DNA of 64,000 nucleotides from NCBI GenBank assembly GCA_905178155.1, contig CAJINV010000005.1, forward strand, positions 6,041,754 through 6,105,753, given 5' to 3'. Below are positions 38,804-63,845 of the stretch, piece by piece (position 1 is the stretch's first letter; each line of letters starts with the position of its first letter). Below the pieces are notes generated by a model. It was given only the letters and a program-made list of their open reading frames with translations. It had not been told where the DNA came from and made no database searches. The DNA comes from Amoebophrya sp. A120. Lineage: Eukaryota > Protista > Dinoflagellata. A program made the position numbers and the translations under genes.

Positions 38804-40581
38804 CTACATCCCGTACACAATGCTCAAAAACGTCCGCCCGTCCACGTTGAAGCCCTGCAACTCTTGCAAACAGCGCTTCGCGTGGTCTTCGTGCCTGAAT
38901 TCCACCTTCATGCGCTTTTGCGTCGTGAAGACCTGAAGTTCCTCCAATCCAGGGTACTGCTCGAACAGTGGTCGCATAATTTCCTCGGTCAAAAACTCGG
39001 TTAAATTGTCGATGATCAGCGTGCAGGTTGGGTCGCCAACCTGGGAGTTTTATTTTGCACATACGGGATGTACGGTTACTATTTACATGCTGCATCAGAG
39101 ATGCGTTTTCTACTTAAGCGGCAAGCTGCTGCAGAAACCCTCTCCTATCACGAAAAAAGACACATTATGCTCAAAAAAGCTAGAATATGAATACGTCCTG
39201 TCCGCTCATCGTTTTTGTTCCTGCCAAAAATCCTGCTTGCCCACTCAACTGCACCGCTGCCTTGTTTTTGATCGTGATTTGCTTCGCTGAGTTCGCGGAT
39301 TCCGCCACTTTCTGTCTTTTCGCCGAAGCGCCAATCATTTCAATCTTTCCCTCTTTGATCATTGCATTATCAGCTGCAAATATATCTGGGTCTGGAAGAT
39401 GAATGGAAGGTTTGTCATGCAGGTTTTGGATGCCCCAGAAGGTCTGGAATTATACGGGTCTAGCATCACAAATCTTAAGAAGGCTTCCCAATTATGCCTG
39501 ATCCGCATGAGAGTAGATCCCCTGTCCTTTCGGTCACAAGAAATGGGCATGCTTTATTGCTGTCCATGCATGAGAGATTTTCCTTTGCTGTGAACTGCGC
39601 ATCACAAGTTGATTGCAACATCCTTCCAGACCCAGATCGATATTTGCAATGCATATGCCTCGATGGATTTCGACTTCGCAAACTGCACGTACATATCCTG
39701 TGCAAAAGCATCGCACTCGTATAAATGCAAGTCTTGCATTACAAATCTTGGCCCCAAGGCAAATCTGCATTACAAATCTCGTTTCTCATGCTGAGGAAAT
39801 TTGTAATGCATTTATACCAGTGCGATACTTTTGCAGTTCATAGTACAAATCCCGCCCGAAAAACGGGAAGCCGTGGAGCCTTATCCTGTGCAAAAGTATC
39901 GTAGTCGTACTAATCGCATTCATGCATTACAAATTTCTTCCTCAAGTTAAATCCGCATTACAAATTTTATTTCTCACGGTGAGGAAATTTGTCATGCGAT
40001 TTATACTAGTGCGATGCTTTTGCATTTCATAAGCCTCGCTTTCGCCTGATTTGCGTTCATGTAATCGTCGAAGCAAACGAAGGCGATGGTCTTCATCAAT
40101 TGTTGTGGTTTGTCGTACTGTTTCCCGGTAACCGCGTTTTTCCCGATCGTCTTGGTCGTGATCCGCTTCTTGTTGATCACGATGGAAAAAATTTCCCCGA
40201 ACGGGTTGCAGAGCTCGTAGAGGTATGGATGGTAAAAGTGTCTGGGTCTGCAAGAGTCATGCTGTTCTTGCATGACACAGAAGGTCTGGTATGGGAGCAG
40301 TAGCATCACAGTTTTCGAGAAACTTTCGCAATGCCGAATCCGCATGACAAATCCCCCAGTTTGGTGGCAGAAACTGAGCAGCTTTGGCTACCTATGCATG
40401 AGAGATTTTTCTGTGTCCTGAAATGCGCATCACAAGTTTGCACTCTTCCAGACCCAGACATTTTTACATTTGATAAGAGGGCGTGTTGTAGGTCGTCTCT
40501 CTTGACGGACTGATCAATGTTGCCGAAGAACAGGGTTTGCTGGTCCTCCTCGGCCTTCCATTTTGGGGCCAGGTGGGTCAT
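38804..40581 (-). CDS. SNRPB2: U1A/U2B''(SNF)-family spliceosomal two-RRM protein (paralogue identity uncertain)
   Basis: Spliced product: TLFFGNIDQSVKRDDLQHALYELCNPFG...IAFVCF..ARLHGFPFFGRDLYVQFAKSKS (RRM1) and PTCTLIIDNL..LFEQYPGLEE..VEF..LQGFNV (RRM2), matching U1A/U2B'' signatures. Contains four introners and a GT-AG intron at 39041-39194. Confidence 0.85.
39368..39655. mobile_element. Introner family C
   Basis: Family C TIRs; DR tgcat/tgcct; junction IEAMIKE. Confidence 0.87.
39694..39842. mobile_element. Introner family A
   Basis: DR gtaca; junction DLYVQFAK. Confidence 0.9.
39882..40031. mobile_element. Introner family A
   Basis: DR agcct; junction ARLHGFPF. Confidence 0.9.
40224..40475. 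mobile_element. Introner family C
   Basis: DR agagg; junction HALYEL. Confidence 0.9.
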
Positions 40582-41449: not shown

Positions 41450-44400
41450 TCATTTGATTCCCCTCAATTTTGCTGCTCCTCCACCGCCCATCTTCTTGCT
41501 GATTTCCGCGAAATCCCGGCAAGAAAAAACCTTTTGACAGCACATCGTGAACAGATTCCAGGTATCGACAGAAGAAGATGAATTTGAATCCTTGGTGCCT
41601 TGCAAGGTTAAGGTTTTAGTATTTGCCTTGCAGCACACCGGCTGGAGCATAAATTCCTCCCCCTCGGCACCGCAGAAAGGACAACATCTTCCATTTATTG
41701 CCGCCAGAACATCGTCGCTGATATTTTTGTCCAGAGCCACCTGCTCTTGCTCTTCGTCTTGCTCCACGTCAAAACTCGCGTGAAATAGCATGCGGTCCAT
41801 AGTGTTGGCGGCTTGGAGAAGTTCAAATGGGGGAATAGCATGCGAATTTTGCTCTGTCATGCGGGCAACCGATTCGAAGTGCGGCGGCGCCTGCTTCTCG
41901 TACTCCAGCCGGTTGAACAGGTAGTCATCTTGCTGCATGAAATCTGCGATGAAATCGATTGGTTTCGCGTCCCTGCATGACAAACTGCCTTCCACCTTTC
42001 CCGCTCCTCCTGCATGTGATGAAACTACTGGCTTGAAGAAATCTCTCCGCTTCCGCTTCTCCAAGTCGATTTTCTCGATGAACGTCCAGACTTCTTCGTC
42101 AACCGCCGAAATTGCGAGAAATTTAGAAGTTGTACTATTTCCGTCTTTATCATGTCCAGCATCTGCATCGCCCCTCGTCTGCTTCTCGAGAAAATCCAGA
42201 TCGATGTTCGACTTCAAATATCAAATGCAAGTATGTCTGGGTCTGGAAATTTGTGATGCTGGGTGGCGTATCATGAGAAGGCCACAAGTGCTGGCCCAGC
42301 ATGACAAGTTTTTGAGCTTTCAGGTGTTGCCTATTCTGCATGACAATCTGCGTTTCTGCATGACAGAAAAAGGGAGCTCTTGGGTAACGCGCATGACAGA
42401 TTTAAAACTCATGCCAGACAAGCATGACAAACAGCCATTCTTCCAGACCCAGACATTTTTGCATTTGATATCAAACAAGCCTGCACCTTCAGCTGAAACT
42501 TCGCAATTTCCTTTTTCTCTGCCATTGTCATTTTCAAATCCTTATCCTTCTGCCTCTCCCTCTTCCCCATGACCACCATCAACTGCTTCAGCGTCTGTTG
42601 CAGTTCCAGCATGGTTCTCGCGTAGCGGTGTTGTAATTGCAAGTTCTTCGTGTAGACCAAAGGGTGCCAAAAGCGGATTAACAAAACGACTCGGGCTTCG
42701 TTTGTGAAATTTTCCACCTCGTGCTCGAAGGAGTCGTCGAAAAGCAGGCATTTGGATTCCTTCCAACATTTCCAATAAGGTCCGACTCTTATGCGGCATA
42801 GAGGACCAGCCTTGTTATTGTTTTCGTTTTCCCCCTGATCTTTCGGCACCCGTATCCCCAAGTGGCACGTCAACCGTAAATTATTCGGCGCGCAGTGCGG
42901 TAAAATGTGCGACCCGGCGGATAATTCGGACAAGATGATTTCTCCGTACCCGTTTTCCGCCATTTCGACGAATTCCGGGATTAAATTCCGCAAGTACCGC
43001 CTCGTTTTGAACAGCGGACGGTTTCTGATGTAATCGTGGTTTTTCTTCAAAAAATTTTTCTTCGTTTCACAATCAAACAAAACGATCTCGCGCCATTTTC
43101 CGCCGGGTTTCAATACATCCCCGTCCTGCTGGCCGCCGGTGCGGTGGGAGCCGCCGACTTCGGCGTAGTGGCCTGGAAGCTGTTCGGCTTGTTTCTCCTC
43201 CACTTCAGCGCCCTCAACCTCCTGCATGGTCTGCCGGGTAAACACTAGAGCGTCCTTGTCGAAATTTCTTGCGTTGGAAATAGCAGCGGTCTTTGTGGAA
43301 GAATTGTTTTGTTTATCTTCCATCTCCTTTTCGTACTGCTCGAGCTCTTTCTTGATGAGTTTGTGCCCGTAATTTTCCAGGTCCTTGATCCAGTACTCGT
43401 TGGTTTGGGCGAGGAGGCTGTGCGGGTTCTTCCTGTCTTCGTCCCAGAAAGGCTTGGCGAAGATTTCTTCATCTTCGACGTGGCTGGCGGTCTGATCATG
43501 CTGCTCGTCCTCCCCTGCACAATAATTCTTGCCGCTGATACGCAGGTCCGAAGGACGAGCCTGCTGCAACCGTGGGAAGAGCACTCCAGGGCGCTGGTGG
43601 CCGAGCAAAAGGTTGGATTTCGAATGATAGGGAACCTCGGGTTCTTCTCTTGCAGCAGCACTTCCACCAAACACCAAGCGGTATCCAAGCTGCCCAATTT
43701 CGTAGGCGAAATCGTACGTTGGAGTTTTCGTACAATTTCTCGACGCCATTTGCCCTTTCGCCTCTTCAAAAATTCCGGCGAGCGTGAAGAAGTGCTGGAG
43801 GCCGAGAGGGAATGATGGTGGAGAGGCTGTAGAAATGGATTTGTCATGCTGGTCGCTCACCACTTGAGCAGCAGCAGCAGCAGCAGCTCCTGCAAAGCAA
43901 GAATTATGCTGAACCAGCCAGGCGATGCGGATCGCGTCGGTCAAAAGTAACAGGTTTATCGTGTGGGGCTTCAGAATAGAACTTAACCTCTTCTGGTCCT
44001 CTGCCGAGTAGTAGTCTGGTGTTTGTGTTTCAGTTTCGGTGGCGTCTTTTCCGTTTTCTTTGTTGAGATCATGCCCATGCCGCATGAGAAACAACTCATC
44101 CACTTTCTGCAGGACGTCGAGGCGTTCCGGATTGCTGCTGGCACTAGTCCCGTTCTTGCCCTGAACAGAATCAGCCACGATCAGGGCGTTTTCACTCTCA
44201 ATATTATCGGCGTTCTTGTCATGATGTCGTGCCATCTTCATCTCGAGATAAGCAATGAACTGTTTCTTGAAGCGAACCACTTCTGGCACCTCGTTCTCCG
44301 CCCAGCTGGTGTAGTTTTTAAAATTTCCCAAAAAGCGGCTCAACAGCCCGTCGGACAGGTCCTGGCTAGATAACCACAGAAGCCGCCTCATGAGGATCAG

Positions 44401-44952
44401 AAGCCTCGCTTCCTGGTGCATCATGGGGTCCTGGTTCAACATCTCCATCCGCGAGGAGGTTGGTTTGATGGTCTCATCGTCATGATTTTCTCCTGTAGGA
44501 GAGGAAGCCGAGACCACCAAGCTATTCAGTTCTTGATACAGTGCCTTGATCAAACCGTGCAACGCGGTGTCGCGCTCCGCCTGCCTTTTTCTTCTGCTAG
44601 CTTCCGACGAAGATTGGCCTGCCTGCGCTTGTAGCATTCTCATCTGCTGCTGTTGCTGCATTCTCAAAAGAAACGCCGTCCAGGCTTTCTCCGCAGTGAG
44701 GGACAGGAGATGTTGTACAGCTTCTTCTTGGGACTCTACTTTCTTGATGTCAACAGGAGCTGCACCTTGCCTGCCAGCAGCAAAAGCTTGTGATGCTGCT
44801 AATGCAGCTCCTGTATTTCCAACTTGCGGAAAGTAGTGCCGCGCCCATTCTGGGTCCCGGGTGAGGTGTTGCCAGGCCAGGTGTTGTTTTTCCCAACCTT
44901 GCTTGCCAGAAGATGGCGCTGGGAGACTCGCGCTGTGAGCAGAGAGAGGCAT
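41450..44952 (-). CDS. Aspartyl/asparaginyl beta-hydroxylase domain-containing 2OG-Fe(II) oxygenase with a Cys-rich C-terminal extension
   Basis: LSAGSHILPHCAPNNLRLTCHLGIRVP...CRIRVG..WKESKCLLFDDSFEHEV..ARVVLLIRFWHP is the Asp_Arg_Hydrox pattern. Joined to ORF 41450-42217 by removing one introner. Start codon is tentative. Confidence 0.82.
42219..42470. mobile_element. Introner family C
   Basis: DR tcaaa; junction ACLKSNID. Confidence 0.9.
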
Positions 44953-47457
44953 CTTTTTTTTGTGTCGGCTGTAATGGGCGTCAGAAGGTACAAAATAGAT
45001 TCCGACTCCCCTCGATGAGTCTGAGTGTGAATGTCTATGCCGGCTCTCCTGCTTATTGCAGCGATTGAAATTGATCCATGATATACAACCGACGTCTTCG
45101 TCTTGCTAAGCAAACAAGTAAGAAAATAGCTCCTGCAGATCTTTGAGGAGAAAAAATATCATGTTTATGTTACTTGATGTTCTCGAAGAAGATCCAGATC
45201 TTCATCTTTCTTCTGCCATGCCCATGATCCTCTGCCGCGTATTAAAGGACTACTTTCACTCGCATAAAGATCTTTATGTATTACTTCTAGCTCGGAGCAG
45301 GAGCGATTTCCAATCTATTAATTTTCCAATCGGAGGCGATCGCAGCAACTTGAACTTGGGAAGAAGATGAACTCATGATCAATGACAATGTGACGATCAC
45401 CATCTGTTTCAACATTCTGTAGGAGCCACTTTGCTGCAGCACTTTAGCTGCATGATGATCCTCCGTCCACGACGTTTTTGTTTGCCTCTCGATCTGTGGC
45501 TAGTACTCGACGCTCACCGTGATCTCTGGCTCTTGTTCTCCTGCTCCTGAAAGATGAAGCCACTTGGTCCTCTAGAAGGCACAAGAACATTTTTACACAC
45601 CATGCGCATCGCCACTCAGGTAGGCGGGCCCAGAAGGCGCTTCAAGGTTTCATTTTTTCGCATTTTCATCGTGCAAGGGGACGCGCGGGCTTCGCGAACT
45701 TTTGTTTTTTGTTTGTTTTTTCGCAAGAAAAGAAAGCGAGACGTCGAAGGCAAAAAAGGAAGCAATTGTGTTCTTCTATTGGTTCGCGTGGACGATTCTT
45801 ATTCTGTCGTTCTAGAAGTTAATGTTAAAGTTTGGCGGGTGCATTTTTTGAATTTAGTTCTTGATGTTACTAGCAGATTTGGATAGTGGAAACTTTCACA
45901 TGATAGCGTATCTTTTTGACTTTCTAACAACGGAATTTGCAGCTCGGTATCAAAACTCGTTCTTCATTCACGCGGGTGCGGGATTTTTTCTCGGATAACT
46001 CAGAAACATCTCGTAAAAATGGGAACAGGGGCTGCACGACTTGAAATATCTCTCTTCTCGTGCTAAAACTAAGGGTTAGACCACTCAAACGTAAAGGTGG
46101 ATTATCTTCTCTTCATCTAGTACTCTCTTGTCACTCTCACTCTTCTTGCTGTAATATCTTGTTCTGTGAGGCTTTTATTTATGTCATTCTAACGAGCAAA
46201 CTAGCTCGTCTAGCGAAAAAGAAAAACGAAAATCATACGTAAGAAGGGCAGATCCTGGCTTTGATTTTCATCAGAGAGTGATTCCTACGAAAACTTTAAT
46301 TTCTACGAAATTTGCGGTTGGAAGTCTCCGCTGAGGTAAAAAAAGCGTGCAAGGAGCGGGCGACCCGTTCCTCTCTCAATCAATCCCGGATTAGCAACAA
46401 CCGGGGTTGCACAGGTCAACACCGCAGACCTATCATATTGAAAAGCGCCCTACTCCTAGTACCGTCTCCGTCAGAAATACCAGAAACCAATATTATATTC
46501 TGTTTCTAGATGCAAATTAATTTGCAGCGAATAAAAACGGAACTTTATTATCTTGCATGAAGAAACTCAAACTAGGATTGCATCCTCAAAGCATCTCAAT
46601 CTCTTACATATACAAGCCCAGCTGTTGTTGCGGGGAGGTGTTTCGGCAACACAGTAGATTTTTTGGGCCACCTATTTTTTTGTCCTGAGGACGAATCACG
46701 AAATTTACACAAAGTACGAGTTGGACGATAACGAAATTTACACAAATTACGAAGGAGCACGACCAGGTGTTGAACGAAACAGATTGTGATTGAAGTAAGA
46801 AGAAAGCAGCGGAAATCTTGCTTCTCGCGATTACGAATCTTTCTATCTTTCGAACAACTGCCTGTTGCCCGAAAGGCAAAGGACCCCGACCAATAGCCCA
46901 CATTAAAGAACGTCGCACAGGGTCTAAATAATCAAGCATACTCATCCTGCGTGCTGGGGTTTCCGCAAAAATCGTTTTCGTTTCTGCACTGGGCCTAAGC
47001 CAATGATCTTTTCGACGAGTTCTGTTTCTTTTTTGTATAAAGTGAATCCAAATCCTTTGAGAGTCGTGTGAGCGGATAAAGAATTTGACGCTGGCAAAAT
47101 GCAATGCTGTGCTTCTGGTTTTAGGGGGTGAAACGGGGGAGAAAGTATGCGCTAAAATCGAAGGAAATCTTCATGAACTATCAAAATTATAAAGGAGCAG
47201 GCAGGGGTTCTGCCTCTCCTGCACGACATGCTCTGTTCAAGAACATAGACATAATTACATTTGATGAAGCACTAGCACTTTGTTCTGCCTCTAGTATTAT
47301 CGGGACCACGTGTATGTATCGTACAAGTACGTCTTTCTTTTTTGTAAATAAATCGAAATCCTTTTTTGTATAAAGAGAAACAATTCCTACCCGATGTTGA
47401 AAGCGGGCGCCGGGATGCAGGTTCCGTCGCCGGGATTTATGCACGTTTGTTCCTTGT

Positions 47458-49950
47458 CTAATTGACGACCGCCGGTATGCATGTGTTGTCGTCGGCATTG
47501 TACTATCAACTGCAAAAATGTCTGGGTCTGGAAACTTGTGATGCAAGAAAGGGAGTAGTGAACTCACTATAATGCGCTGCCAAGCATGACAAGTTTCTTC
47601 CATGGCTCTGAGTTGCGTACTCCGCATGAGAAACCGCGTTTTTGCATGACAGGGAGGAGGAGCTCTTCGCGGCCATGCAACGGAGAGCTCAGAGTCATGC
47701 CAGACAAGCATGACAAATCTCGCAATCTCCCAGACCCAGACATTTTTGCATTTGATATGTACTGGCACGCGCCACCGGACTCTTGCACGCACTATACCTG
47801 GGAAAGAAATATGTCTGGGTCCTCTGGAAGATGAGAAGTGCAAGGCTCTTTGTCAACATGATCGATGGTCAACTACATGATCTCGTGGTGGACCACACAG
47901 CTGGTCGGGAATGGACACAGAAGCATGATCACAGGTTATTTTTCTGCTCGAGCTTCCGAGTAAAATCAAACTAGGAACCCTAAACGACCTAAACCCTGAA
48001 ACCCTGGGAGAACCGGCCGCGACGGACGCCCATCTTGCCACGTGCGTCCCTACATGCATAGTTTTTTGAAAAAGAAAAGCAAAAAGAGAAGGATGAAGAA
48101 AAAAATCGAGCGAGGCGAGCGAATCTCTCGGCGGCCTATGAAGGACAATCCAGTGGCCAGCCGGAAGTCCAACACAGTAGGGCTTCAGCTGCGCTGGCTC
48201 TAAACCTGTACATAGTACAGACCTACGTACGTATGCGCCACACCTTCTCTCATCCGAGTACAAGACTCGTCCGAAGCTCAAGCAAAGCGAGAAAAAAGAA
48301 AGACGCAAGCGAGGCGCGATTCTACTCGGGCATGCGAATCAGGTAGAAGAAGGAAACCGAAAAAGGCGAGCTTGTCCGAGGACCGAAAAGGCATATCTCA
48401 TCCTCACAAAGCCGAAACTCAAATCCCTCGGCTTCACAAGGCACATGTAAACGAGCACGAACAAGACGACGACTGCGATCAGCCCAAAGGCGAGACGTTT
48501 TCTGCTCGAGCTTCCTAGTAAAAATGCCTATAATCGTCCCGCATGATGAGAAAGAGAAATTCGCCCATTACGCGTAGCAAGGCAGTACCATAATTACGCA
48601 AGAAGATTTTCGGCGCTCATCATGCAACACAGATTTATTCATTTTTGAACGGTCCAGCAGACGCAGCGAGCATGACCAAAAGTTGCATCCTTCGAGAAGA
48701 TCCAGCCATCATATGTGCAATTTGCATATGCAGCCCATATTGACGGGATCATATTTTTGCTCCAGCGCGGCGCAGTCCATGCACTGCTTCGCGTCAAAGT
48801 CCCACTTCCAACTTCCGTAGTTGGCGGGGTCCATTTTCAACGGTTGGTCTGACCAAGCACACTTTTGCTCGGTCGCAGCATTGCACGCATCCTTGTCTGC
48901 CAACTGGCGGCACGCGGTGCTTTGTCTGTCCCCGCCGCCGCCGGCCGAACCCTCTCCATCCGTTATCAAAATGAAAAATGATCCCCCCTCCCCATATCAT
49001 GCTGGATCTGTGTACACAAATGCGCTTTGTATTGCAGGAAGGCACTGCGGCCAGATACCCAGCCTAAGCAGAGGCGTCTGGGTCTAGTTGTTCAGCATGG
49101 CAAACGGCTCCCCTTTAGGCCAAACAGCATGACAAACGGCTTCCATAATGGGGCGGCAGCTTCTGCCCTTGTCTTCTTGCAACACAAATGTGATCTGTGG
49201 CCTCAAATCAGCAACACAAATATTCGGAAACGTACCTTTTCAATATGGGGAGGGGGAGTTTTTCCTTTCGATATCCGCAGGGGCTCCGCTACTCGGCTCC
49301 CGCGGTGGTTCCTCGGCGCCGGCGCCCGCCGTGCTCCCGGTTCCCCCGTGGCTTGAACCTCCCGCGTGGTCGCGAGTGTCAGTCGTCGTCGAATTGCTCG
49401 AGGCGCCGGATGAATCCGTACTATCACCGGAGCAACCAACCTTTTAATATCCAGTGCAAAAGTATCGCTCTCGTACTAATTGCACTTATGCATCCCGTTC
49501 CCAAGCAAGGTATTAAATCAGCATGACAAATTCCAACTGTCATCATGCTGAGCGAATTTGTATTGCAATCACTACTAGTACGATGCTTTTGCAGTGCATA
49601 GCTTTTCCTTCTTGGCGAAAACCTTCTGCAAGAAAGCCTTTTTTCCGGACGGGCGAACATGCTGGTTCAACGAGGACATGGAGCTTTGTCCTTGCTTCAA
49701 AGGACGAGGGACGACCGGGACGGCGTGGCGCCCGTTGTGCTTGTGCGCAGACACCACCTGATGTGTGTGTTGAGTAAGTAGTTAGTTTAATGTTGGGGAT
49801 GAGATTAAGATGACCAAGAAGGGGCGATCTACAAAATTTTTATTTTGTCCCCGCGTGTAGTAGTGCTTGAAAGGGGATCGGGATTGAGGTTGACAGTAAG
49901 CGTATGCGTAGCGCACAACAAATTGCAAAAGCCAAAGTTCTCGTCCTCAT
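47458..49950 (-). CDS. Small secreted protein with a G/S-rich linker and Cys-rich C-terminus (reconstructed)
   Basis: Signal-like MRTRTLAFAICC|VVSAH across a putative GC-AG intron (49758-49914). Removing four introners gives ...ACRQLADKDACNAATEQKCAW...CMDCAALEQKYDPVNMGCVQESGGACQYNADDNTCIPAVVN*. Confidence 0.6.
47504..47757. mobile_element. Introner family C
   Basis: Family C TIRs; DR tgtac; junction CQYNAD. Confidence 0.9.
47793..48728. mobile_element. Enlarged, degenerate family-C-like introner carrying a nested insert
   Basis: Left end tatacctgggaaagaaatatgtctgggtcctctggaag; right end cttcgagaagatccagccatcatatgtgcaatttgcata; DR cgcac/tgcag; removal restores the frame. Confidence 0.6.
47940..48523. 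mobile_element. Nested insertion flanked by about 26-bp direct repeats, with telomere-like repeats at one end
   Basis: ttttctgctcgagcttcc(g/t)agtaaaa at about 47940 and 48498; aaccctaaacgacctaaaccctgaaaccct at 47976-48005. Confidence 0.6.
48964..49273. mobile_element. Introner family I
   Basis: tatcaaaatgaaaaatgatcccccctccccatat / atatggggagggggagtttttcctttcgata; DR tccgt/tccgc; junction PADGEG. Confidence 0.85.
49448..49600. mobile_element. Introner family A
   Basis: Family A TIRs; imperfect DR ccttt/gcttt with 3 extra bases on the left. Confidence 0.8.
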
Positions 49951-51356
49951 GTTGTTGCAGTTGCTTTCACACAGGCACCAACAGGAGCTACTACAACCGC
50001 TCATACTACAACTCATCTACCCTCTGGAAACATCATCATCCTCCGGATTTTTATGCAGTGCCGGCCCTGGTAGTGAGAACTGAAAGACTTACAACTAGTG
50101 CGCTTTTCCTTCTTTTCTACAACTACAGCACGACTGTACTACCTGGTGCGGCCCTTGCAACGGCGCACAGGCTCCTGCGATGAGGAACGACCGGGCTGCG
50201 AGCGACATGTTGGGAAGGACAGGAGGGGAGAGAAGAAAATGCAGTCTACTTTGTCTCCTGATTCACTGGTTGTTTTTCACCGAGCCTCTTTTACTACTTG
50301 GCTATCTAGCTTTTGCCTCTACCAAACGGCGTCGAGTGAACTTCAACGTGTCTGGTACGTACTGCTCGTCGAGTGGAAACTTAAAATTCCGGGGTGTGGT
50401 ACAACTAGTAAGTACTGCAATAATTATTCCTGGGTAGAAGATGAGGAAGCAAATCTACTTAAAATTCTTCACTTTTATCCTTTTCGTGCCGTAGCGGAGA
50501 TTCGAATTATTCCGGGACGAAAGCACGAAGTTGCAATAGCCGAAAGTTTCACGACACGTTGATGTAAAACGCTTTTTCATTTGGACGAGTCCCACTTTTG
50601 GTTTTGATGTCATCGAAGCTAACAACATAATTTTAGGCCAGACAGGCAGAAACTGAAACGAACGTGTTTCTTTGATCAAGACGCGACGTTCGTAAAACCG
50701 ATACCGAAGGTGTGGGTCAGGAGCTGCAACAGACACGACTTCTTCGCCCACCTTAACCGAACTGGCCACCGAGGCGCCGCCAATGGTAAGTTATTTCCAA
50801 CAACCGCCGCCTTGATGACAGCATCATCATCGCGCGCGTGAAAGAGTCCTCAAGGTAATGTCTTTCTTTTGCAGTCAACATGCGAAACAAAAAGGACGAT
50901 CTTTTCGACGAGTTGCTCTTACTTAATATTACGGTTGAATTTTTGAAAAAGAAAAGTGGAACATGAAAAAGTAAAAAATTATACGCATGGATCTTTTCTG
51001 TGTGTTGGCGAAACGGGGAAGTAATAGTACTAGTATATGTACTGGAAGTCGATAAACTACATAAAACCTGTATGATGAAGTATGAATACTGTTCATGAGT
51101 AGGCAGCGGAACTGCACGACAAAACGCACTCTTGCATAGCAGTAAAAATGAGTTCATATCGGAATCGGGGTCATGCTGCTCGGAAAAAAAAACGTAGTGT
51201 GGAATGATTTCATCGGAGCGTTCACGTTGTGCTTGTGGTGCTGCGCTTAGAAAGTACGTAAGTAGCAGCTACCAGGAGAGACAAATGCCCCTTCTCACTC
51301 GCGGCCGTCACTTCTGATCTCACGCCGCCGCCTTCCCCTCTAGAATTTCCACGGCA
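49615..51356. repeat. Segmental duplication copy 1 (gene 5' end + intergenic region + gene 3' end)
   Basis: Aligns by eye with about 52670-54436 over 49615-50700 and 51175-51356; the middle part is not obviously alignable. Confidence 0.85.
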
Positions 51357-53071
51357 GCACTGATTTTAATATTTGGGAGCTCATTTTCCAAACTTGTCGT
51401 ATCGTTGTACTCCGTCGCCTTATTGTCCGCCCCGTAACCGAATATGACGGGCATGAGTCGCTCGACAACGTGGGCGCACTCGCTTCCGAAGCTATCACCG
51501 GCCGAGCATTCCTGGCCCACCTCCCGGTAGAGTTCCTTCTTCCTCTGCAGCAGGAGGACGCTCGTGGTGGACTGGGCGCCGTTCATTCCCGAGAAGTAGG
51601 TCCCGACCTCTTCCCAGGCCGGCTCCCGGATCCACGATTCGTACCAGGAGCGCAAGTTCATCGGCATCGGATCCACGATCGTACCGTTCGGCGACACCGG
51701 GGGACGAAACCGGGCCCGGGCCATCTTATGTCCGTTGTACTCCGCGATGGAAAAGGAGCCTGCATCGGCCAAATACCCAACAGGTTCCCAATGCGCCGAC
51801 GGAAAATTGTAGTGATTGAAGTAGGCCCGCGACTTCCCCACCGAGAGCGGATCCTGGCGAAAGGCGTTCCGAATTGTGTTAATTCGCTCCTTGTGGTGGT
51901 TGAAACAGGGAAACGGCAGGTAATGCAGACGGAGATAAGGCGACGCGCTTGCAGATCTGTTACGAGCAACTTCTTGCTCTTCGTCCACGGTGATAGCGCT
52001 TGGTCCCAATTGCTCCGAAGGTGAAGTCTGCAGAGGGTACAGTGCCTGGATCTCGTCGTACTTTTCGTACGTGTAATTTGCAAAGGACGCCATCTCGCGA
52101 CCGAGATTCGGCTGCTCCGTGCAGACGACCCGTCCGCCGCCGCTCCAGCGCGTAGCGGTGACGTCACTGCGGCCCGCCCAAAACCGCCCCGCCTGTGTCC
52201 CGACAAAGTGGTCGCAGGGCCCGCCTTGGCGGAATTTCGCTGCTGACAGGTGCCTCAGTGCGGTCGAGGTCGTTGAAGCTGTGGCCGCAGTCTCAGGCCC
52301 TAGTAAAAAATCATCGTCCTTCATGAGCAAATGCAGCTGGCAGCTCATGTTTTCCGTCTCCTCCAGTAGTTGTATGAGTTCCCGCTTCGCTGACTCCGAG
52401 TAAAAGTCGTCGACATAGAACGCAACAATCAGCCAGCACGGGTACAGCTTCTTCTGCGGTGCCGGGAGCAAAGTAGCAGTGGCATTAGAAATACTTGCAC
52501 TGGTCCTACTTTTCGCTGCGTGTCGTGACCCTACCGATTCTTGCTCCGGCGCAAGTCGTCCCCGGCCTGAAGATAATTCTAGTACGGTTTCGTTCGCCGC
52601 GGCGCGACCACCAGCAGTAGTTGTACCATGACGACCAGCGGAACGACCCGAAAATGAAACTCGTTTCTTCGCGAAAAACTTCTGCAAGAACGCGACAGGC
52701 TTTATTTCGTTTTTGTTTCCCGAGGCGGGGGGGGGGCGCGCTTCGTGGTCCCAACGGGCCACGTCGCTTGTGCTGTACTAGCGTAGACGAAGTTGTCGTG
52801 GAGCCTTGTCCTTGCTTCAAAGGAGAGACGACCGGGAGGACGCGGCCCTTCTTGTTGACCCTGTGCGCAGACACAACCTGATGTGTGTGTGTGTGTTAAG
52901 TAAGTACTATGGTCTTAGTTTAATGTTGGGGCTAAGAGAAGGGTCGATTTACAAAGTTTTTAATTTGTTCTCGCGTGTACATAGTAGTGCTTGAAGGGGG
53001 ATCGGGATTGACGTTGGCAGTAAGTGTATGTGTAGCGCACAACAAATTGCAAAAGCCAACGTTCTCCTCAT
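51320..53071 (-). CDS. Secreted DUF3431-like protein; apparent frameshift in a G10 run (possible pseudogene or sequencing error)
   Basis: PNLGREMASFANYTYEKYDEI and HVVERLMPVIFG match DUF3431 motifs. Exon 1 MRRTLAFAICC, putative GC-AG intron 52878-53038, frame changes at 52727-52736. Confidence 0.65.
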
Positions 53072-54436
53072 GTTGTTGCAGTTGCTGTTAAACACAAACA
53101 GGAAGCAGGCGCTACTAGTACAACCGCTCATACTACAACTCTACTCTCTGGAAACATCATCATCGTCCCACGATCTATGCAGTGCCAGGCCTGGTATTAA
53201 GAACTGAAATACTTACAACAAGTGCACAGCAGGACTGTACATCTACCTGGTGAGGTCCTTTCCACGGCGCACAGGCCCCTGCAATGAAGAACGACCGGGC
53301 TGCGAGCGACATGTTGATGAAAGGTGGCTCAGGTCCTCTTGAGGGATGGCGAAAGAGACGAGGGGAGGGAAGAAAATGCGGTCTTTGTCTCGTTATCCAC
53401 TGGTTGTCTTATTTCAATTCAGTGAGCGTCTCTAACTACTTGGCTATCCAAACGGCGTCGAGTGATCTTCAACGTGTCGGGTACTGGAGTGGCAACTTAA
53501 AATTCCGGGGTTGTGTGGTAAGTACTGCAATAATTCCTGGGTAAAAAAAGCAAATCTACTTGATCTTCACTTTTATGTACCTCTACCTTTTTCGTGCGAT
53601 AAGAAAGATTCGGATTCCAGAACGAAAGCACGAAGTTGCAATAGTAGACGAGTTGTAAAACGGTTTTTTATTTGGACGAGTCCGACTTTGTTTGTCATGG
53701 AAACTAACGTTCGGTCCGCCAGGCAGACACGATGAACGAACGTGTTTGAAGATGCAGACGACACGGAAAACCGAAAAAAAAGGCTCAACTACAGCAGCAT
53801 AGAAACCACTCACGCATGAGAGATGAACGCCCGTAGCAGGCACTTCTACCGTGGTACGTGCTAGCTTGCTACCACAAAACCGACGGTGACAGAAACGAAA
53901 TCAGAGTTGTACCGAGTAAAGTTGGAACGAATTTCGTAAAAATAAACGAAACGAAAACGGTTCAACCGAGCGACGGAAACAAAACATAATTTTTATATGA
54001 GCACAAACAAAATAAAGCTCAGCGGAGCCATCCGGAGGATGAAAGGCTGAGGCTTACGTGTTTATCACACAAATCGAGGACGTCGGGACGAAGGCAGAAA
54101 TTTTTTTGACTCAATTCGAATTGAACGTGTTGGTGTTCATCGACGTCAGACTTCTATCTTCGATTGTTCGGAAAAAATGTAAGTAGTTTGGTTTTGCATT
54201 GATTTCATGGAGCGTTCTTGTGCTGCGCTCAGCAAACAGGAGCTGCAAGGAGAAACAAATACCCCTTGTTCTCCCTCGCCGCTGCTACTACTTCTGATCT
54301 CACGTATTCCCTGAAAATGAAGCATCCCCATCCAATTCTTGCATGTTTTGCATGACAAAGAAATTGGATGTTGGGGATGGTAAATTTATAGGGAATATGA
54401 TCACGCCGCCGTCTCCCCCTCTAAAATTTCCACGGC
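52670..54436. repeat. Segmental duplication copy 2
   Basis: Paralogous to 49615-51356. Confidence 0.85.
54305..54397. mobile_element. Introner family D inserted at the stop codon
   Basis: tattccctgaaaat...gggaata; DR tcacg contains the minus-strand TGA; absent from the paralogous site at about 51320. Confidence 0.85.
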
Positions 54437-57400
54437 ATTTTTCAGCCCCTCAATCTCCTCCTCCCGCCGTTTCTGCCGTTCCTCAAACGAATCCGCCTTG
54501 GTTTCACACTCCTCCTTAATTTTCGCCACGTATTCCAAAGCCGCGTCCTCTATCCAGGAGAAAACACCCATCCCCATCCACTTTGTCATGCAAAACATGC
54601 ATAAGCTCCAGTGTTTGCCATGCAAAAAATGGATGGGGATGGATGTTTTTCCTGGATATCCTCCGCCTTCACCGCATTGGTTTCATCCTGCTCCGCGTCG
54701 TTGATTCCCGTGTTTAACTGTTCAATTTCTCCCTGGTAACCCTTAATCGTCTGCTTCGTCGTGGCCATATGGAAGCGTCAGGATTGAAATCGTCAAAGTT
54801 GAAAATAAAATTTTTGTATTGCATAAAACGCAATGCACAAGGTGCCTGTCTTGCAAGGGTGGCAAGCGAGGCCGACTGTAAGCCTGTTTGGGGTCTGCGA
54901 TAGAGCTGCTAAAGCAGCATAACCAAAGCAGTCTTCTCTGTCCAAGCAGCATGACAAATTGGATTTCAATACTGCCAAAATTTGTCATGCGCCACTTGAA
55001 ACCTGTGTTCCAACTGGCATCCATCTGATGCATGGCAAATCATTTCAACTTTGACGATTTCAATCCTGACAGATCCATATGCCAGTTCGACTTTGTAATC
55101 CTGCGTTTTCTGTTCAAACTGGGACTTCAACGACTGTTCTAAATTCTGCACGTCAATTTTGGACTTCGCGAAATCCGCCTCCGCGGTTTCCAACAGCGCG
55201 ATCACCGAATCGGCCACGTTGGTGGTGGACACCCGGGACTTCGTACTCGTTTGCATCTCTGTGTTAGAACTTTCCTGCAACAACAAGGCCGATTCCGTCC
55301 CCTCGGCGAAGTACTCCTGCAAAACCTGGATCGCCTTCCCGCACGCTTCTTCGTTCGCCATCGCGGTCGCGATCTCCTCCTCGTTTTGCTTCTTGTTTTT
55401 CGCCCGCATGGCGGTGATTTGCTCGACATCCGCGTTGATCTCTTCGATTCTCTTCTCCAGTTGTGAAATCGTTTTCTCCAATTTCGGATGCATGGCAAAA
55501 GTACCGTACTCGTAGAGGTAGAAATCGCAGCTATCGTGCCCATGCATCACAGATCTATCTTGGTGCGCTAACCAGCATTACAAATTTCCTTTTTCATGCT
55601 GACCAAATTATTTGTGATGCGATTTCTACTAGTACGAAAAAAAAATTTTGGAAGGCATATTTCGTCTTGTCTGCCATCGCTTTCTCTTTCCGCATGGTGA
55701 GTTTCTCGCGTTCCTGCTGCTTTTTCTTCAAGTCCTTCTGCCCCTTCGCAGATTCTTTTTTGCAGTACGCGTTCTTGTCGTTTTCTTCCGCCGTTTATGA
55801 GAGTGCACAAGAACTCCCCCCCCCCTCGTCATTTGTCACGCAAAATACCAACCCCAAGCGCTGCTGCGTGGTACTGTTTGCATGACAGATTCCGGAAACC
55901 CAAACAGTACTACAATAGACGCATGAACTTGTCATGCACAGGCTCCACAGGTGGTGGGGGTGTCTGTATTGCTTTCCATACAATTACAAATGAGGAGGAG
56001 GGGGAGTTGCACACTGTCATACCATTTCTTTCTCTAATTTCCCAATCATGTTCGAGATCATCTGTTTCACCTTCCCAAACGGGTCCTCCGCAATGCGGAT
56101 GGAGAGCTGGTACAGTTGCGTTTGCGTTTGGCTCGTCTGTTTGCTACTATTTCCATTTGATGTTCTTCCGCTTTGCTCCTGCTGCAGCCACTTCGCAGCC
56201 AGTTTCTGCAGGTAGATGCTCGCAGCGGTCTGTCGCTGCAGCTGTTCGGTTGTCGACTTTATTTGCGCTTTGGTGCCGCTAGTGAGTTGTGTTCTTGCCT
56301 GGACTTGCAGGAAAGATGATACCGCAGCGCCTGCTAGTTGATGTCCATCAAGAACTACATCACTACTGCTTTCTTGCAAGAAATCGGGTGCATTCTGCAA
56401 AATCTCCATTGCCGTGTTGAGCGCCTTTAACTCCGCAGCGAAATCCTCCTGTTCCTCGTGGAACTCCTTCGTCGCAATCCGGCACTTATGCTGTGCAAAA
56501 GTATCGCACTCGTATAAATGGCGCAGATCTTGCATTACAAATTTCTTTATCAAGGCAAATCAGCATTACAAATTTTATTTCTCATGCTAAGGAAATTTGA
56601 ATGCATTTATACGAGTGCGATACTTTTGCAGTTCATAGCACTTCGTTTCCGAGTCCTCCAATGTTTTCAAACACTTTTTGACTTCCTCCTCCAACACCGC
56701 AATCTTCTCTTCTGCCTTCGCCAGCTTCTCTTCATTCGTCGCTTTTTTCGTTTTTTCCCGCTCGATCAGCGTTTTAAGATTTGCGACGTTGTTGGTTAGT
56801 TGTTGAATCAACAATTGCTTCTTCATCGAGTTCTCGGACCATTCCTGTTGCCTTTGGTTCTTACTCGCGATTTCGTCTTGCAGGAACTTTTCAAACAGGT
56901 CATATCACAGGAAAAAGTGTTACCGTTAACGGAATAGAATTTGTGATGCAGCAATGCATCACAAAACGTGTCAGAATTTGTCATGCGTGGCATGCATATT
57001 GGGCTACATTTGTGATGCCTGACTGCAATCTGTGACAACCGTTAACGTTAACACTTTTTCTTGCGATAAGTCAATGACCCCACTCATCCCGGAATCCGTG
57101 TCCAACCCTTTATCGACCGCTTGGGGCTGCTGGAGAAGTAAAGCGCTGTACTTTTCCTGTTTTTTCAGCGAAACAGACGATGCTTTGGTGATCGCGGAGA
57201 GAGCGACTTGGACCGAATCTAATGCTTTCTCCTGGAGTTGCAGGAAGGATTTCTTTTCGCCAGATCCCCCTTCTTCCTCCGACGTACTACTTTTCGCCTG
57301 CTTCATCGTCAGCGCCCGAATCGCCCGTCGCACCATGTCGATGGTTTGGCTGGACTCTTTGTCCAGTTTTGCAAACTCTTGCTTCTCTTCCCCGAAAAGC

Positions 57401-57843
57401 TGTTTCTCACTCGCGAGCTGCTTCGTCACCTGTTGTTCCTTTTCTGATGTTGCGGAGATCACACTTCCAGCCTTTTCCACTAGAGATGATGCCTCCTGCT
57501 TATCCGCTTTTTGGGTTTTCAAACTTGTCTTCAAAACAGCGAGCTCCTTCTGTTCCTGGATTTTCGTTTGTTCGCATTCCTGCTCGAGTTCATCCTGCTC
57601 TTCCCTGGCAATTTTCGACTCTTTCTCTGACTGCTGCCGCATACCTTCCAACATCTTGATAACAGGCGCAATGCTGCCGCCGGGCTTGGTGGTCAGGGTG
57701 GCTTCGGTTGTTTGAAGCAAGAAAACACATGTTGCCGCGGCCAAGGAGCAAGCAACGGAACCACGACGAAACGAAGACATGGCGGTCATCTTCTTTGCTC
57801 CTAATGCTGGCCGATTCATACCACCAGGTCGTGGGGGCGACAT
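54401..57843 (-). CDS. Secreted long coiled-coil protein of the dinoflagellate SFLQ-motif type (uncharacterised)
   Basis: Signal-like VACSLAAATCVFLLQTTEA; motifs IAPVIKMLEGM, SFLQ, DPFGKVKQMISNMIGKLEKE, KNAYCKKE, SFEERQKRREEEIEGLKNAVEILEG. Six introners removed in frame. Start Met uncertain (57843 to 57780). Confidence 0.8.
54551..54658. mobile_element. Introner family D
   Basis: DR tcctc; junction KAEDAAL. Confidence 0.9.
54768..55079. mobile_element. Introner family B
   Basis: DR ggcca/tgcca; junction VELATTK. Confidence 0.9.
55487..55659. mobile_element. Introner family A, degenerate
   Basis: Decayed TIRs (gatgc...gcata); DR tttcg; junction DKTKLEK. Confidence 0.82.
55796..56021. mobile_element. 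Introner family E
   Basis: DR ccgtt/ccatt; junction EKE(M/T)AEEN. Confidence 0.88.
56487..56637. mobile_element. Introner family A
   Basis: DR gcact; junction ETKCRIA. Confidence 0.9.
56903..57068. mobile_element. Introner family J
   Basis: TIR tatcacaggaaaaagtgttaccgttaacgg; DR ggtca/agtca; junction VIDLFEK. Confidence 0.88.
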
Positions 57844-59082
57844 CTTGCAGAAGCAGTCGTGGCCACGAGGCTACGGAACGATTGTATATTAGCTGTGTCA
57901 GAACTCCACTTAGCCGTAGACGTCGCTCATCAGCACTCGTCACTCAAACATGCGGTCGCTCTCTCAGAATCGTAAATAAATCGGTCCTGTCAAAAATGGA
58001 CCTACACACAACTTGGGGATCTTTTACCGACATCACGCACACACAACTGTTTTTGCGTGTGACGTCCGCTGGCGCGAACATGACTCCACCGTGGAGCGAG
58101 TGCGATCCGCACGTCGCACCGCTGTTCTTTCGACGACCTACGCAACGCCGGGTTTGTAGTTTTTTTCTTTCTGAGACGAGAAGCAACTGAGGGACAAAAA
58201 TTTGTTTCGCTTTTTGTTTTGGAAATTGTCTATGAGGAATGCTGGTTGCGAAACTACTACATTTAGTGGGTGAAGTATATAAAAATGGCCGTCATCGGAC
58301 AAAGAGTTCTTTGCTAAAAAGCCGAAGAACTCCTCTACTGCCTAAAAGATTGGAACGTAGTTTATCGCACTACACCACAAAGAGCAGCTAAGTACAACTT
58401 CTACACTACAACAGCACTAGTAGAGCGAGCTCCGCTTTCAATTTCTAAATTCATCCCACGTGGCTGTTTGCGATAGCAGGTTCTAGATTTCGAGTTATCG
58501 CGTCGTGAAGATCATAAGAAAACCTATAATCAATCTTGTCTTCACACCTGTTCGCTACTGCAATAACCAGTGGGACTATGATGAAGAACTACTACCTCCT
58601 CGTTTCTAATATGCTAGTGTCTACAACCTCTACACCACTGCGACAAACAGGGATACTGCTTGCGAATAGCAGGGATGCGGGGGAAGAAACAAGTAGCTCA
58701 GCCCTAGGTGATGAATAAGTAGCTGCTGCCGCCCTTCTCACAACTACAGCTGTCGTTTGAGTTGCTTTTGGCTTGGGGCCTAGCAGGTTTTTCGGAATGG
58801 AAAAATTTCTAAAATTGAAGTAGTTAGACTCGGTGATATGCATGTCTGACAATGCACTTATCCAGAAGGACAAGAATGGCTTCGAAGATAAGTGTGATAA
58901 TTATGCAAAATTGTAATTCAGAAAAAAGTGTGTATTGTTGTTGTAAATTGAAAAAAATGTAACTAAGTAAAAACGGTAGTACAAAAAGAGTACTTAGCTG
59001 CAATAAATTTGAACGGACTGAACCCCAGTACCAAAAATCGAACAATCTATGATCTATCCATGACATGTTGACCAGAAAATCA

Positions 59083-60548
59083 TCATACCCAGTTATGCGC
59101 CCCGTCGTAGTCGATCGTCATTTCGCTTTCCTTCCTCCCCAGTAGCGTATTTGCGGCTTTGCTCTTGATGTAAAAGTAGATGAAGTCCGATAATATGAGC
59201 AGGTTAAAAAACTCCGTGGCAGTCGCCATGTTGTGGTTGTGTGGTGACCAGCCGTTCACCGTTGGGAAGAGCAGCCAGAAGGTAAGGGTGCAGAATTTTG
59301 CTATACCCTGGAACATGAGGAAGTCACCGAGAAGCACCGGAATCTTCTTTGTCTTGTACAGCATCAGGAGTTGGGGGAGGACGGACATAATCTGTAAGTG
59401 GTTTTTTGGTGGTGGGAATCATTCGGACTGAGAAACAGAAATTGAAAGCAGCAAAAACTTTTCGTTGTTGCATGATAGAAACAGACACAGATGAATGTCT
59501 TTTCAAAAAGGAAGTAGAGTATAAAAACTTCGTACATCTGCATGACAAAATCACTTCAAATTTCTCCGTATAAGTACTATACCTGAACAATCTCGCAAAT
59601 GCTGCAGAGCATGCACAAAGAGAACGCGAATGGCACGTCCCCATCCGCCGTGATGATCGAGCACCTCGTGACTGACCAGAAACAGGCCACAATCGCGGAA
59701 AACACCAGCAAGCCCCCGAACTGGACGAACAACGTGTCGTGGTATTGTTTGGGTAAAATCCGCTTCAGAAACGCCCGGCCGAAGACGTCATCCGCAAAAT
59801 CTTCTTTAATCGAATTACTGACACAATACAAAGCAACGGTGGTGACCACCCCCATAAACACCGCAAACCCGTCCACGATCAAGTAGATGAACGGGGGAAA
59901 AACCTCCGGGGAATAGTGGATCCCGAAAATGTGACTGCAGGAATGGAGACACCGGCCCGCGGCGAACCCGAGAAAAGACTGGAGGGACACACCCCTCGGC
60001 CCGCGTCGTTTTACCGAATGGAAGACGCAGTAGAAGGCGAAAAACCCGCAAACGTCGGAGACCAGGATGAGAAAGTCGAGGAAAAGGAGGCCGAAAAAGG
60101 ACGGTGGCGGCTCGTCTTCCTCCTCATGCTGCTGTTCTTGCTCCGCTGGCTTTTCTGATGTTGCTGGTGTTGCTTTGCCGAGAAGCTGATGCGCCTGGTA
60201 GAGTATCACATGCAAAAATGTCTGGATCTGGAAGATTGCGAGATTTGTCATGCTTGTTTGGCATGACAAAAAAGTTTGTGATGCGTGTCGAAGAAGAGAC
60301 ACTTCCGCCTGTCATGCAAAAACGCAGCTTCTCATGCGAAAAACGCAACACAAAGAACTGCAGATTTTTTTCATGCTTGGCTCTGCAGCATTACAGAGCA
60401 CTCACTATTTTTCCCAAGACAGCACTACAAGTTTCCAGACCCAGACATTTGTACAACCCATATAGAGGGTGATCAGGAGGGGGAGAACCCGCTGGGCGAG
60501 CCGCCTGCTCGTCGTGGCAGTAGAGATCATACTGCGGGGGGAGAGCAT
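59083..60548 (-). CDS. ERD2: ER lumen protein-retaining receptor (KDEL receptor/ERD2-like)
   Basis: Multi-TM protein with RGVSLQS, SVLPQLLML and LILSDFIYFYIK motifs; GT-AG intron 59392-59582; one introner. Confidence 0.85.
60204..60462. mobile_element. Introner family C
   Basis: DR tagag; junction ITLYQAH. Confidence 0.9.
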
Positions 60549-63269: not shown

Positions 63270-63845
63270 GTCAGAAAGGACGCCACAAGGGTTTTTTCAT
63301 CACAATTTGCATTGCAAATAAGACAAAGCATTGCGAATCGATATGTGGTTCATCATGGTGAGTGCGCATGACAGGCACGCCGAATGTAGCCAGATACTAT
63401 CAGGAGGGGAATCCATCTTGCATCATCTCCATCACAGCCGAGAGGCCGCAACGAATCATGACAAAGCATTGCGATATAAAGGACGAGTCATCATGAATTA
63501 TTCTGGCCTTAGATTGTTGTGCACGCAGTGTTGCTCTGGGTCAAAGTGCGCGAATTCACAGACGATTAGTATGCCACAGAGTCAGGAGGGGAATCCATTT
63601 TACATCACCTCTGCACAAGACTTGCATCATGCGCAAATCATGACAAAGCATTGCGATATAAGAGGACGAGTCATCACGATAGTGGCAAAACTAGAAGACC
63701 TGGAGGAGAAATTGAGGTTACATATAGACGACTTATGTAGAACTATCAGGAGGGGAATCCTATTTTGCATCAACTTTGCCTTGATCAATACAACCAAATG
63801 CAAATCATGACAAAGCATTGCGATATAAGAGGACGAGTCATCATA
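63270..63845. repeat. Array of about 100-bp repeats separated by unrelated spacers
   Basis: Units tatcaggaggggaatcc...aatcatgacaaagcattgcgatataagaggacgagtcatca at about 63398, 63580 and 63744, plus a degenerate unit at about 63270. Confidence 0.8.

Follow-up and report, generated by a model that had tools for sequence, protein, structure and literature searches.

How can a gene come to share its beginning with one neighbor and its end with the other, around a center that resembles neither? The question is raised by a locus in a stretch of 64,000 nucleotides (nt) from the marine algal parasite Amoebophrya sp. A120 (contig CAJINV010000005.1, forward-strand positions 6,041,754 to 6,105,753; the whole stretch is termed the window herein). 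Three minus-strand genes, labeled as neighbors in minus-strand order, follow one another here: U (the upstream coiled-coil gene), M (the middle gene), and D (the downstream Cys-rich gene). The surroundings of the locus are eukaryotic and rich in inverted-repeat introns, and the database proteins matching D (P0003) and the core of M (P0002) carry the source name Amoebophrya sp. A120. According to the excerpted text of PMC7789003, Amoebophrya is a dinoflagellate-related parasite with introner elements, most of its proteins are fast evolving and without assigned function, and its gene order is conserved. A preliminary description of the locus had proposed that one duplication of the intergenic unit around a captured, possibly retroposed or foreign, open reading frame (ORF) gave M ready-made expression and secretion signals. 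Our analysis points to a different history: M is a mosaic whose parts match three donors resident in the genome (D, U, and a small dispersed family of genes). It was probably built within an old tandem copy of D through repeated rounds of ectopic recombination or gene conversion, and it is now transcribed, spliced, and frameshifted, likely without a fusion protein.

The window was compared with 6 of the 11 listed sequence runs (X2, X6, X8, X10, and X11 were left out): the DNA run X1, possibly from the same sample from which the window was assembled, and five RNA or RNA-guess runs (X3, X4, X5, X7, and X9), none of the listed runs being recorded as RNA. The significance of aligned segments is given as z against shuffled alignments, counts within the FLQ box (FLQKxFAKK) that compare M with its paralogues are by-eye alignments, and contig depth gives no copy number. 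One of 487 metagenome pattern matches, contig L001 from a sister strain, was the only relative found, and it carries M.

Borrowed ends around an unrelated core

In a self-alignment, the strongest repeat of the window pairs positions 49679-50598 with 52799-53689, and when its copies were cut into eight segments, seven of them aligned (80 to 92% of aligned columns, z 11 to 36). The repeat is part of a block of ∼1.1 kb (block B) that extends from the upstream region of D through FAKK. M and D agree here at 352/410 columns of the upstream region, 59/66 positions of exon 1, 304/339 of intron 1, 96/120 of exon 2 up to FLQ, and 24/26 of the FLQKxFAKK segment; past FAKK, homology is not significant (39 of 500 shuffles reach the score). 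Block A comprises the last 37 nt of U and ∼150 nt of its 3′ untranslated region (UTR): the last codons of M and U are identical at 34/37 positions (51320-51356 versus 54401-54437), and their proximal 3′ UTRs agree at 104/126 columns (51170-51319 versus 54160-54298; z 15.5). Both blocks have similar divergence (8 to 20%; 11.6 to 11.9% for block B between M and D) and similar copy offsets (∼3.0 to 3.1 kb), and the copies of block B stand as direct repeats on either side of the insert. Judged from these alignments, M owes its promoter-side kilobase to the D lineage, and U supplied the stop codon and the proximal 3′ UTR; both of these borrowed ends had been recognized in the preliminary description.

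The core between them (51357-52664) has no relative within the window by blastn and tblastn, and its protein shows no likeness above shuffles to D or to five U frame segments. P0002 is 84 to 85% identical to it over aligned columns, has 72 extra residues that are present in RNA, and has a C terminus of its own where M turns to the U-type tail; at 52168-52444, X1 holds M's own contig and two others. By these comparisons, the core has at least two paralogues in the same genome, and its family is resident, not foreign; the paralogues are known through the P0002 protein and 30-letter loose ends of contigs. A HMMER search over 1.84 billion proteins matched only M's own cluster, none of 209 prokaryote-genome and 16 viral-contig pattern matches was confirmed as a core relative, PDB sequences gave one chance-level match (E 0.39), and there was no shorter relative of M among 1898 candidates. 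The GC content at third codon positions (GC3) of the core (0.65) falls within that of neighboring exons (0.58 to 0.67). With neither an outside donor nor an odd composition, a horizontal origin of the core ORF is not supported, though a donor still unsequenced is conceivable. The retroposed or foreign core proposed earlier thus gives way to a resident, introner-bearing family with ordinary GC3 and no donor found.

The label DUF3431-like may be right. In the Atlas feature comparison, the top matches of the core (residues 105 to 475) are eukaryotic DUF3431 clusters (0.89, 168/256 features); this likeness is by Atlas features only, with no relative outside the core's own cluster, and Pfam, including the hidden Markov model for DUF3431 (PF11913), gave 0 families for all five proteins even at E 10. 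The AlphaFold2 model is poor (predicted local distance difference test [pLDDT], 34.6), and we treat DUF3431 as a weak lead. An assignment of P0002 as MACPF (Atlas 0.92, 152/256 features, model pLDDT 0.26) was set aside, being below the usual feature count and unrepeated with the M core.

Both edges of the core lie where resident donors show homeology (5′ edge) or microhomology (3′ edge), as in gene-conversion mosaics. The contigs of paralogues part from M at 51357 and close to 52652. The paralogue 5′ loose end agrees with 52650-52679 at 21/30 letters, and the FLQ box changes its likeness along its length: above 52665, M matches D at 13/15 positions and the paralogue at 10/15, and below 52665, it matches the paralogue at 11/15 and genomic D at 4/15. 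M is therefore D-like above ∼52665 and paralogue-like below, which argues for a crossover inside a homeologous box. At the 3′ junction, at most 3 nt are common to U (microhomology), and an X7 loose end at 51357 translates as P0002's own tail. Two DNA contigs also leave M at 51357, agreeing at only 0.65 with their own consensus; this hints at a second paralogue that is interrupted by an intron or ends in a different tail at this position. The junction sequences contain no poly(A) relic or target-site duplication, which age could have erased.

The junctions are not products of assembly. The X1 DNA contigs 49574-51455 and 52623-54578 show no difference to the window and cross the junctions by 99 and 43 letters, RNA contigs also cross both, and L001 has, in the same order, a core that is ∼96 to 97% identical, the U-type tail, the spacer, and D exon 1. 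This comparison indicates that M is neither a mis-assembly nor a full-length paralogue and that the core-tail-D order predates the split from the L001 strain (∼7% intergenic divergence); the chimera described earlier is a real one. Separately, ∼100 nt behind the stop in L001 (L001:1262-1365) match neither window copy, a local replacement since the strain split.

The core is not the only unrelated part, as had been thought. The spacer middles, 54159-53790 and 51169-50700, align no better than shuffles (z 0.8), and the former has no match in L001 (z 0.7). The middle of copy 1 contains an older relic of the distal 3′ UTR of D: 50898-51160 and 47263-47005 are colinear, with agreement at 161/224 columns (z 9.6; reached by 0 of 200 shuffles), and the match persists without an exact 17-mer (z 6.1) as the best of 118 window tiles. 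Neither the spacer middle of copy 2 compared with D's distal 3′ UTR (z 1.2) nor the sequence beyond the 17-mer (50897-50700 versus 47004-46830; z 1.2) is significantly alike. Two age layers result, with 28% divergence for the relic, 11.6 to 11.9% for block B, and 6.6 to 10.7% for the strain pair; relic and block B regions diverge alike between strains (∼7% each).

The 17-mer itself (50898-50914, identical to 47005-47021) lies in otherwise 30% diverged 3′ UTRs, occurs in L001 as well, and has one further site in the window (29032) at up to 3 mismatches. The RNA contigs of both M and D end ∼60 to 90 nt past it, a weak hint since these are contig ends, and we regard it as a candidate 3′-end processing element.

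Splicing, leader, and reading frame of M

RNA contigs of three of the five RNA or RNA-guess runs (X3, X4, and X5) splice M intron 1 as a GT-AG intron of 369 nt (53246-52878), which X7 and X9 do not cover, and in D the corresponding intron, 50142-49758, is part of the database model P0003. The shared intron does not have the GC-AG borders given to it earlier: the GC donor is used by none of the listed RNA joints. It falls, together with the proposed hydrophobic signal-peptide exon, inside M intron 1, so this exon is spliced out; in the D copy of L001, the ATG of the proposed exon is followed by a stop after 6 codons, near the contig end. The real exon 1 is weakly hydrophobic (best 9-residue hydropathy, 1.9 to 2.0).

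Exon 2 up to FLQ measures 187 nt in M and 123 nt in D, and because of these net +64 nt, the leader is out of frame with the core in the window strain. The spliced M mRNA opens a frame of 145 codons that stops at 52508-52506, out of frame with FLQK and the core. Since DNA and RNA contigs show no gap there, a consensus error does not account for the break. The same evidence led us to reject a sequencing error in the run of 10 G (52727-52736). A second small frame-restoring intron was rejected because the RNA contigs are continuous over 52623-52875. A separate open frame runs through the FLQ box, core, and U-type tail; its first ATG, at 52348, lies behind four upstream ATGs. The M-specific 5′ end, core, and 3′ end pieces are all present in X4 and X5 at similar contig depths (19 to 28), which fits one transcript without proving it; X9 (raw reads), which covers an introner only (2 of 30 bins), and X7, which lacks M-specific ends, were not counted for expression. 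In the window strain, M is likely a transcribed relic. Of the ready-made signals ascribed to it, the promoter-side kilobase from the D lineage stands, and secretion is not supported, given a spliced-out signal exon, a weakly hydrophobic exon 1, and a leader that is out of frame.

Features of the U-M-D locus, with positions in the window (strand: -, minus;., none assigned)
Feature	Positions	Strand	Evidence
U, coiled-coil-type gene with introners, donor of M's tail	54401..57871	-	RNA contig X7-19 (2605 nt), exon pieces between 57871 and 54101
U's last 11 codons and stop (block A copy 2, coding)	54401..54437	-	34/37 with 51320-51356
Introner-like inverted-repeat element behind U stop	54299..54400	.	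Missing from M's copy and L001
U proximal 3′ UTR (block A copy 2)	54160..54298	-	104/126 with 51170-51319
Spacer middle U-M, no homologue in copy 1	53790..54159	.	z 0.8 versus 50700-51169
Block B copy 2, D-type: M upstream region, 5′ UTR, exon 1, intron 1, exon 2 start	52665..53789	-	80 to 92% with 49609-50699
M coding exon 1, 22 codons	53247..53312	-	RNA contigs; 59/66 with D exon 1
M intron 1, GT-AG, 369 nt	52878..53246	-	Joint in X3, X4, X5 RNA contigs
Frameshift zone, M exon 2, net +64 nt versus D, exact base not placeable	52727..52755	-	Length comparison; no gap in DNA contig X1-4 or RNA contigs
5′ junction in FLQ box, D-like above ∼52665, family-like below; box and core in one frame	52650..52690	-	24/26 with D; paralogue loose end
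Core, segment of resident multicopy orphan family, DUF3431-like by weak lead	51357..52664	-	P0002, paralogue contigs, Atlas 0.89
U-derived last codons and stop of M, in frame with core	51320..51356	-	3′ junction 51357/51356; same tail in L001
U-derived proximal 3′ UTR of M (block A copy 1)	51170..51319	-	Segment alignment
Older relic of D's distal 3′ UTR, now M's distal 3′ UTR	50898..51160	-	161/224 columns with 47263-47005
Block B copy 1: D upstream region, exon 1 (50208-50143), GT-AG intron (50142-49758), exon 2 to FAKK	49609..50699	-	
Introner in D	49444..49601	.	Begins ∼8 nt beyond end of shared block
D distal 3′ UTR, homologue of 50898-51160	47005..47263	-	Covered by RNA contigs X3-9, X7-16

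No Pfam family was found for U above the cutoff.

Exchange between copies, order of events, and competing explanations

The core of M has no introner in the window strain, as the preliminary description had noted. The observation is correct and says little, because gaps of this kind are common (of the 33 intervals that separate introner-like elements in the window, 16 equal or exceed the core in length, and the chance of none in 1308 nt is ∼0.46) and because other core copies carry introners. Paralogue DNA loose ends at 51468 and 52434 contain introner ends, and the M copy of L001 has an introner (L001:830-1091; window site 51479-51468) where window M has none, its end and flank being identical to an X1 paralogue loose end at 30/30 letters. 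At this site, M and P0002 read a different, similar peptide, and window M is not the spliced form of the introner-bearing allele; comparison of the copies suggests that the introner was likely moved or removed by gene conversion. Of the 34 listed paralogue alleles that lie within the compared blocks, 12 recur in L001, where they are clustered, and the differences of L001 from window M are uneven (13/642 versus 11/183 in adjacent blocks; Fisher P = 0.01). This clustered sharing and uneven divergence, counted on the best-supported listed differences only, may reflect patchy conversion. This would be a likely case of an introner gained or lost through conversion between paralogues instead of transposition, which matters when events are dated by introner presence; among the literature matches listed, judged by title, there was no Amoebophrya work on introner gain or loss by this route.

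In another part of the locus, the element at 54299-54400 is kept unspliced in RNA contig X7-19 and behaves like a miniature inverted-repeat transposable element (MITE) in a 3′ UTR, not like an intron.

We infer the order and direction of events and the repair pathway as follows. An old tandem duplicate of D would have provided the shell, whose 3′ UTR relic is 28% diverged. Its interior would then have been swapped for the family segment via a crossover in the FLQ box, in which D and the family are still ∼70% alike; the 5′ junction would be in frame because the crossover fell inside this box. A younger copying, of ∼12% divergence, may have made the 5′ kilobases of M and D alike, and, at similar depth, U's last codons and proximal UTR may have replaced the family C terminus through the microhomology at the 3′ junction. 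The core-tail-D order was in place before the L001 strain split off, and family copies would still trade patches. The net insertion in exon 2 then uncoupled leader from core in the window strain; the ancestral fusion protein may have been DUF3431-like, with a leader and perhaps secreted, but lacking the hydrophobic end of the family.

A less probable course, which nevertheless deserves weight, is that a family segment reaching from the FLQ box through its own D-like 3′ UTR was inserted by a single crossover or template switch that duplicated D's 5′ kilobase, the U end being patched separately. In its favor, the FLQ box of the paralogues still agrees with M and D at ∼70% by eye, so an old D-like shell may be common to the family; the direct-repeat copies of block B flank the insert, and no conversion of block B is required. 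However, the relic is located where a tandem copy of D would leave it, the U tail still needs a second event, and no close second copy of the relic is evident, the X1 depth over 50740-51113 being at single-copy level (45.8) at 90% likeness, a weak test.

We consider it improbable that a single duplication of the whole unit of U end, spacer, and D start around a retroposed or foreign ORF, as proposed earlier, produced the locus. The similar depths and offsets of blocks A and B would suit it, local replacements such as that behind the L001 stop do occur here, introners present in other copies are missing from window M, and retroelements occur in Amoebophrya, as the excerpted text of PMC7789003 states. 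The D-type relic largely refutes it: the spacer middles are unrelated, the middle of copy 1 matches the D 3′ UTR at an older depth, and, because of the 28% versus ∼12% divergence, one duplication is ruled out as the source of both ages unless rates differ about threefold. As for the ORF, its paralogues are resident and bear introners, no outside donor was found, M differs from a spliced introner-bearing copy at the common introner site, and 51357 shows no poly(A) relic. Nor does M have the marks of a retrocopy, with no precise intron loss and no poly(A) tract or target-site duplication at its ends.

Slightly lower still do we rate the idea of a mobile core, a cassette whose ends are fixed and which gains new termini with each gene it enters. 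The two DNA contigs that leave M at 51357 seem to continue differently, as such a cassette would, but the second continuation could be an intron, introner, or indel, the 5′ edge fades in homeology instead of being sharp, and no terminal repeats, target-site duplication, or mobility gene was seen. An assembly artifact or three full-length paralogues can practically be dismissed: although no single record spans the locus, the repeat copies are 8 to 20% diverged, both junctions are bridged in DNA and crossed by RNA contigs, L001 has the same 3′ junction in another strain, and the core aligns with neither D nor U.

Several points weigh against the reconstruction from three resident donors. No single contig or record spans all of M, and the paralogue loci are visible only as 30-letter loose ends, so that the order and direction of events had to be deduced. 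L001 reaches neither the 5′ junction nor the frameshift and, as a single metagenome contig, could merge paralogues; X3, X4, and X5 are one sample, and all RNA support comes from one study. The relic could have come with the family segment instead of from a tandem D copy. Further, a comparison of 308 codons of window M with L001, which excluded those at one 6-nt gap and next to the introner site, gives a ratio of nonsynonymous to synonymous substitution rates (dN/dS) of 0.30 (Fisher P = 0.002); a core that looks so constrained speaks for M having encoded a useful protein up to recent times or even now. This low ratio may be borrowed, since conversion from working paralogues gives the same signal. 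The 12 polarized amino acid changes (7 window derived, 3 L001 derived, and 2 ambiguous) are too few to indicate relaxed selection.

Comparison with known systems and further observations in the window

Chimeric genes in Drosophila arise from tandem duplication with both breakpoints in coding sequence, and secondary modification is common, according to the excerpted text of PMC4069613. Like such duplication-born chimeras, M combines, between direct repeats, the 5′ part of the gene that follows it with the 3′ end of the gene that precedes it. It differs from them by a third, dispersed donor at the junction, by unshared spacer middles, and by two age layers, so that its intergenic unit is not one piece of one age.

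In the excerpted text of PMC2926784, oomycete Crinkler (CRN) proteins have a recombination site, HVLVxxP, between a conserved N terminus and diverse C-terminal domains. M resembles them in joining a conserved leader to an unrelated domain, in frame, at a short conserved box, in a parasite. In contrast to CRN, M shows one junction and has no sequence relation to CRN, and any secretion, host delivery, or family-wide hotspot would be hypothetical. The box is known from D, M, and one paralogue loose end, and it is with considerable doubt that we mention the FLQ box as a recurrent in-frame recombination site, at which Syndiniales might swap leaders and tails of secreted proteins in a CRN-like manner, with conversion also carrying introners between genes. 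A literature search for the FLQ motif in dinoflagellates found none.

Bacterial chimeric type III effectors are discussed in PMC6460904, as far as its excerpted text extends. M has the promoter and N terminus of another gene in front of its core and in this resembles terminal reassortment, but it is eukaryotic, includes an intron, has borrowed both ends, and is broken in frame in the window strain, and any effector function would be hypothetical. In terminal reassortment of type III effectors, reportedly described by Stavrinides in 2006, the promoter and N terminus of one gene are said to be set before another coding region.

The elements with inverted and direct repeats that occur in U, D, the paralogues, and L001 agree with the description of Amoebophrya introners in the excerpted text of PMC7789003; at this locus, they record history and were probably carried along by conversion, but they did not cause the chimera. 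Among the literature matches listed for conversion or chimeric genes in Amoebophrya, there was no locus of this kind. The locus shows at base resolution one route to new orphan gene structures while the neighbors stay unmoved; its value is limited, as chimeric genes are nothing new and the window strain carries a broken fusion.

Within D, low-depth RNA-type contigs are unspliced over 48225-48902, a region that model P0003 skips, and a possible D transmembrane stretch lies near 48480-48400. Elsewhere in the window, an uninterrupted minus-strand frame of 898 codons (42409-45105) contains an Asp/Asn beta-hydroxylase domain (PF05118, E 1e-30); long introner-free genes therefore occur in the window. 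On the same strand, 59083-60311 holds an endoplasmic reticulum (ER) lumen protein retaining receptor-like gene (PF00810 in 59086-59418). A unit of ∼100 nt is present three times, spaced, within 63396-63844 (copies 77 to 82% alike), and two introners of one family lie at 39691-39846 and 39880-40031, ∼34 nt apart.

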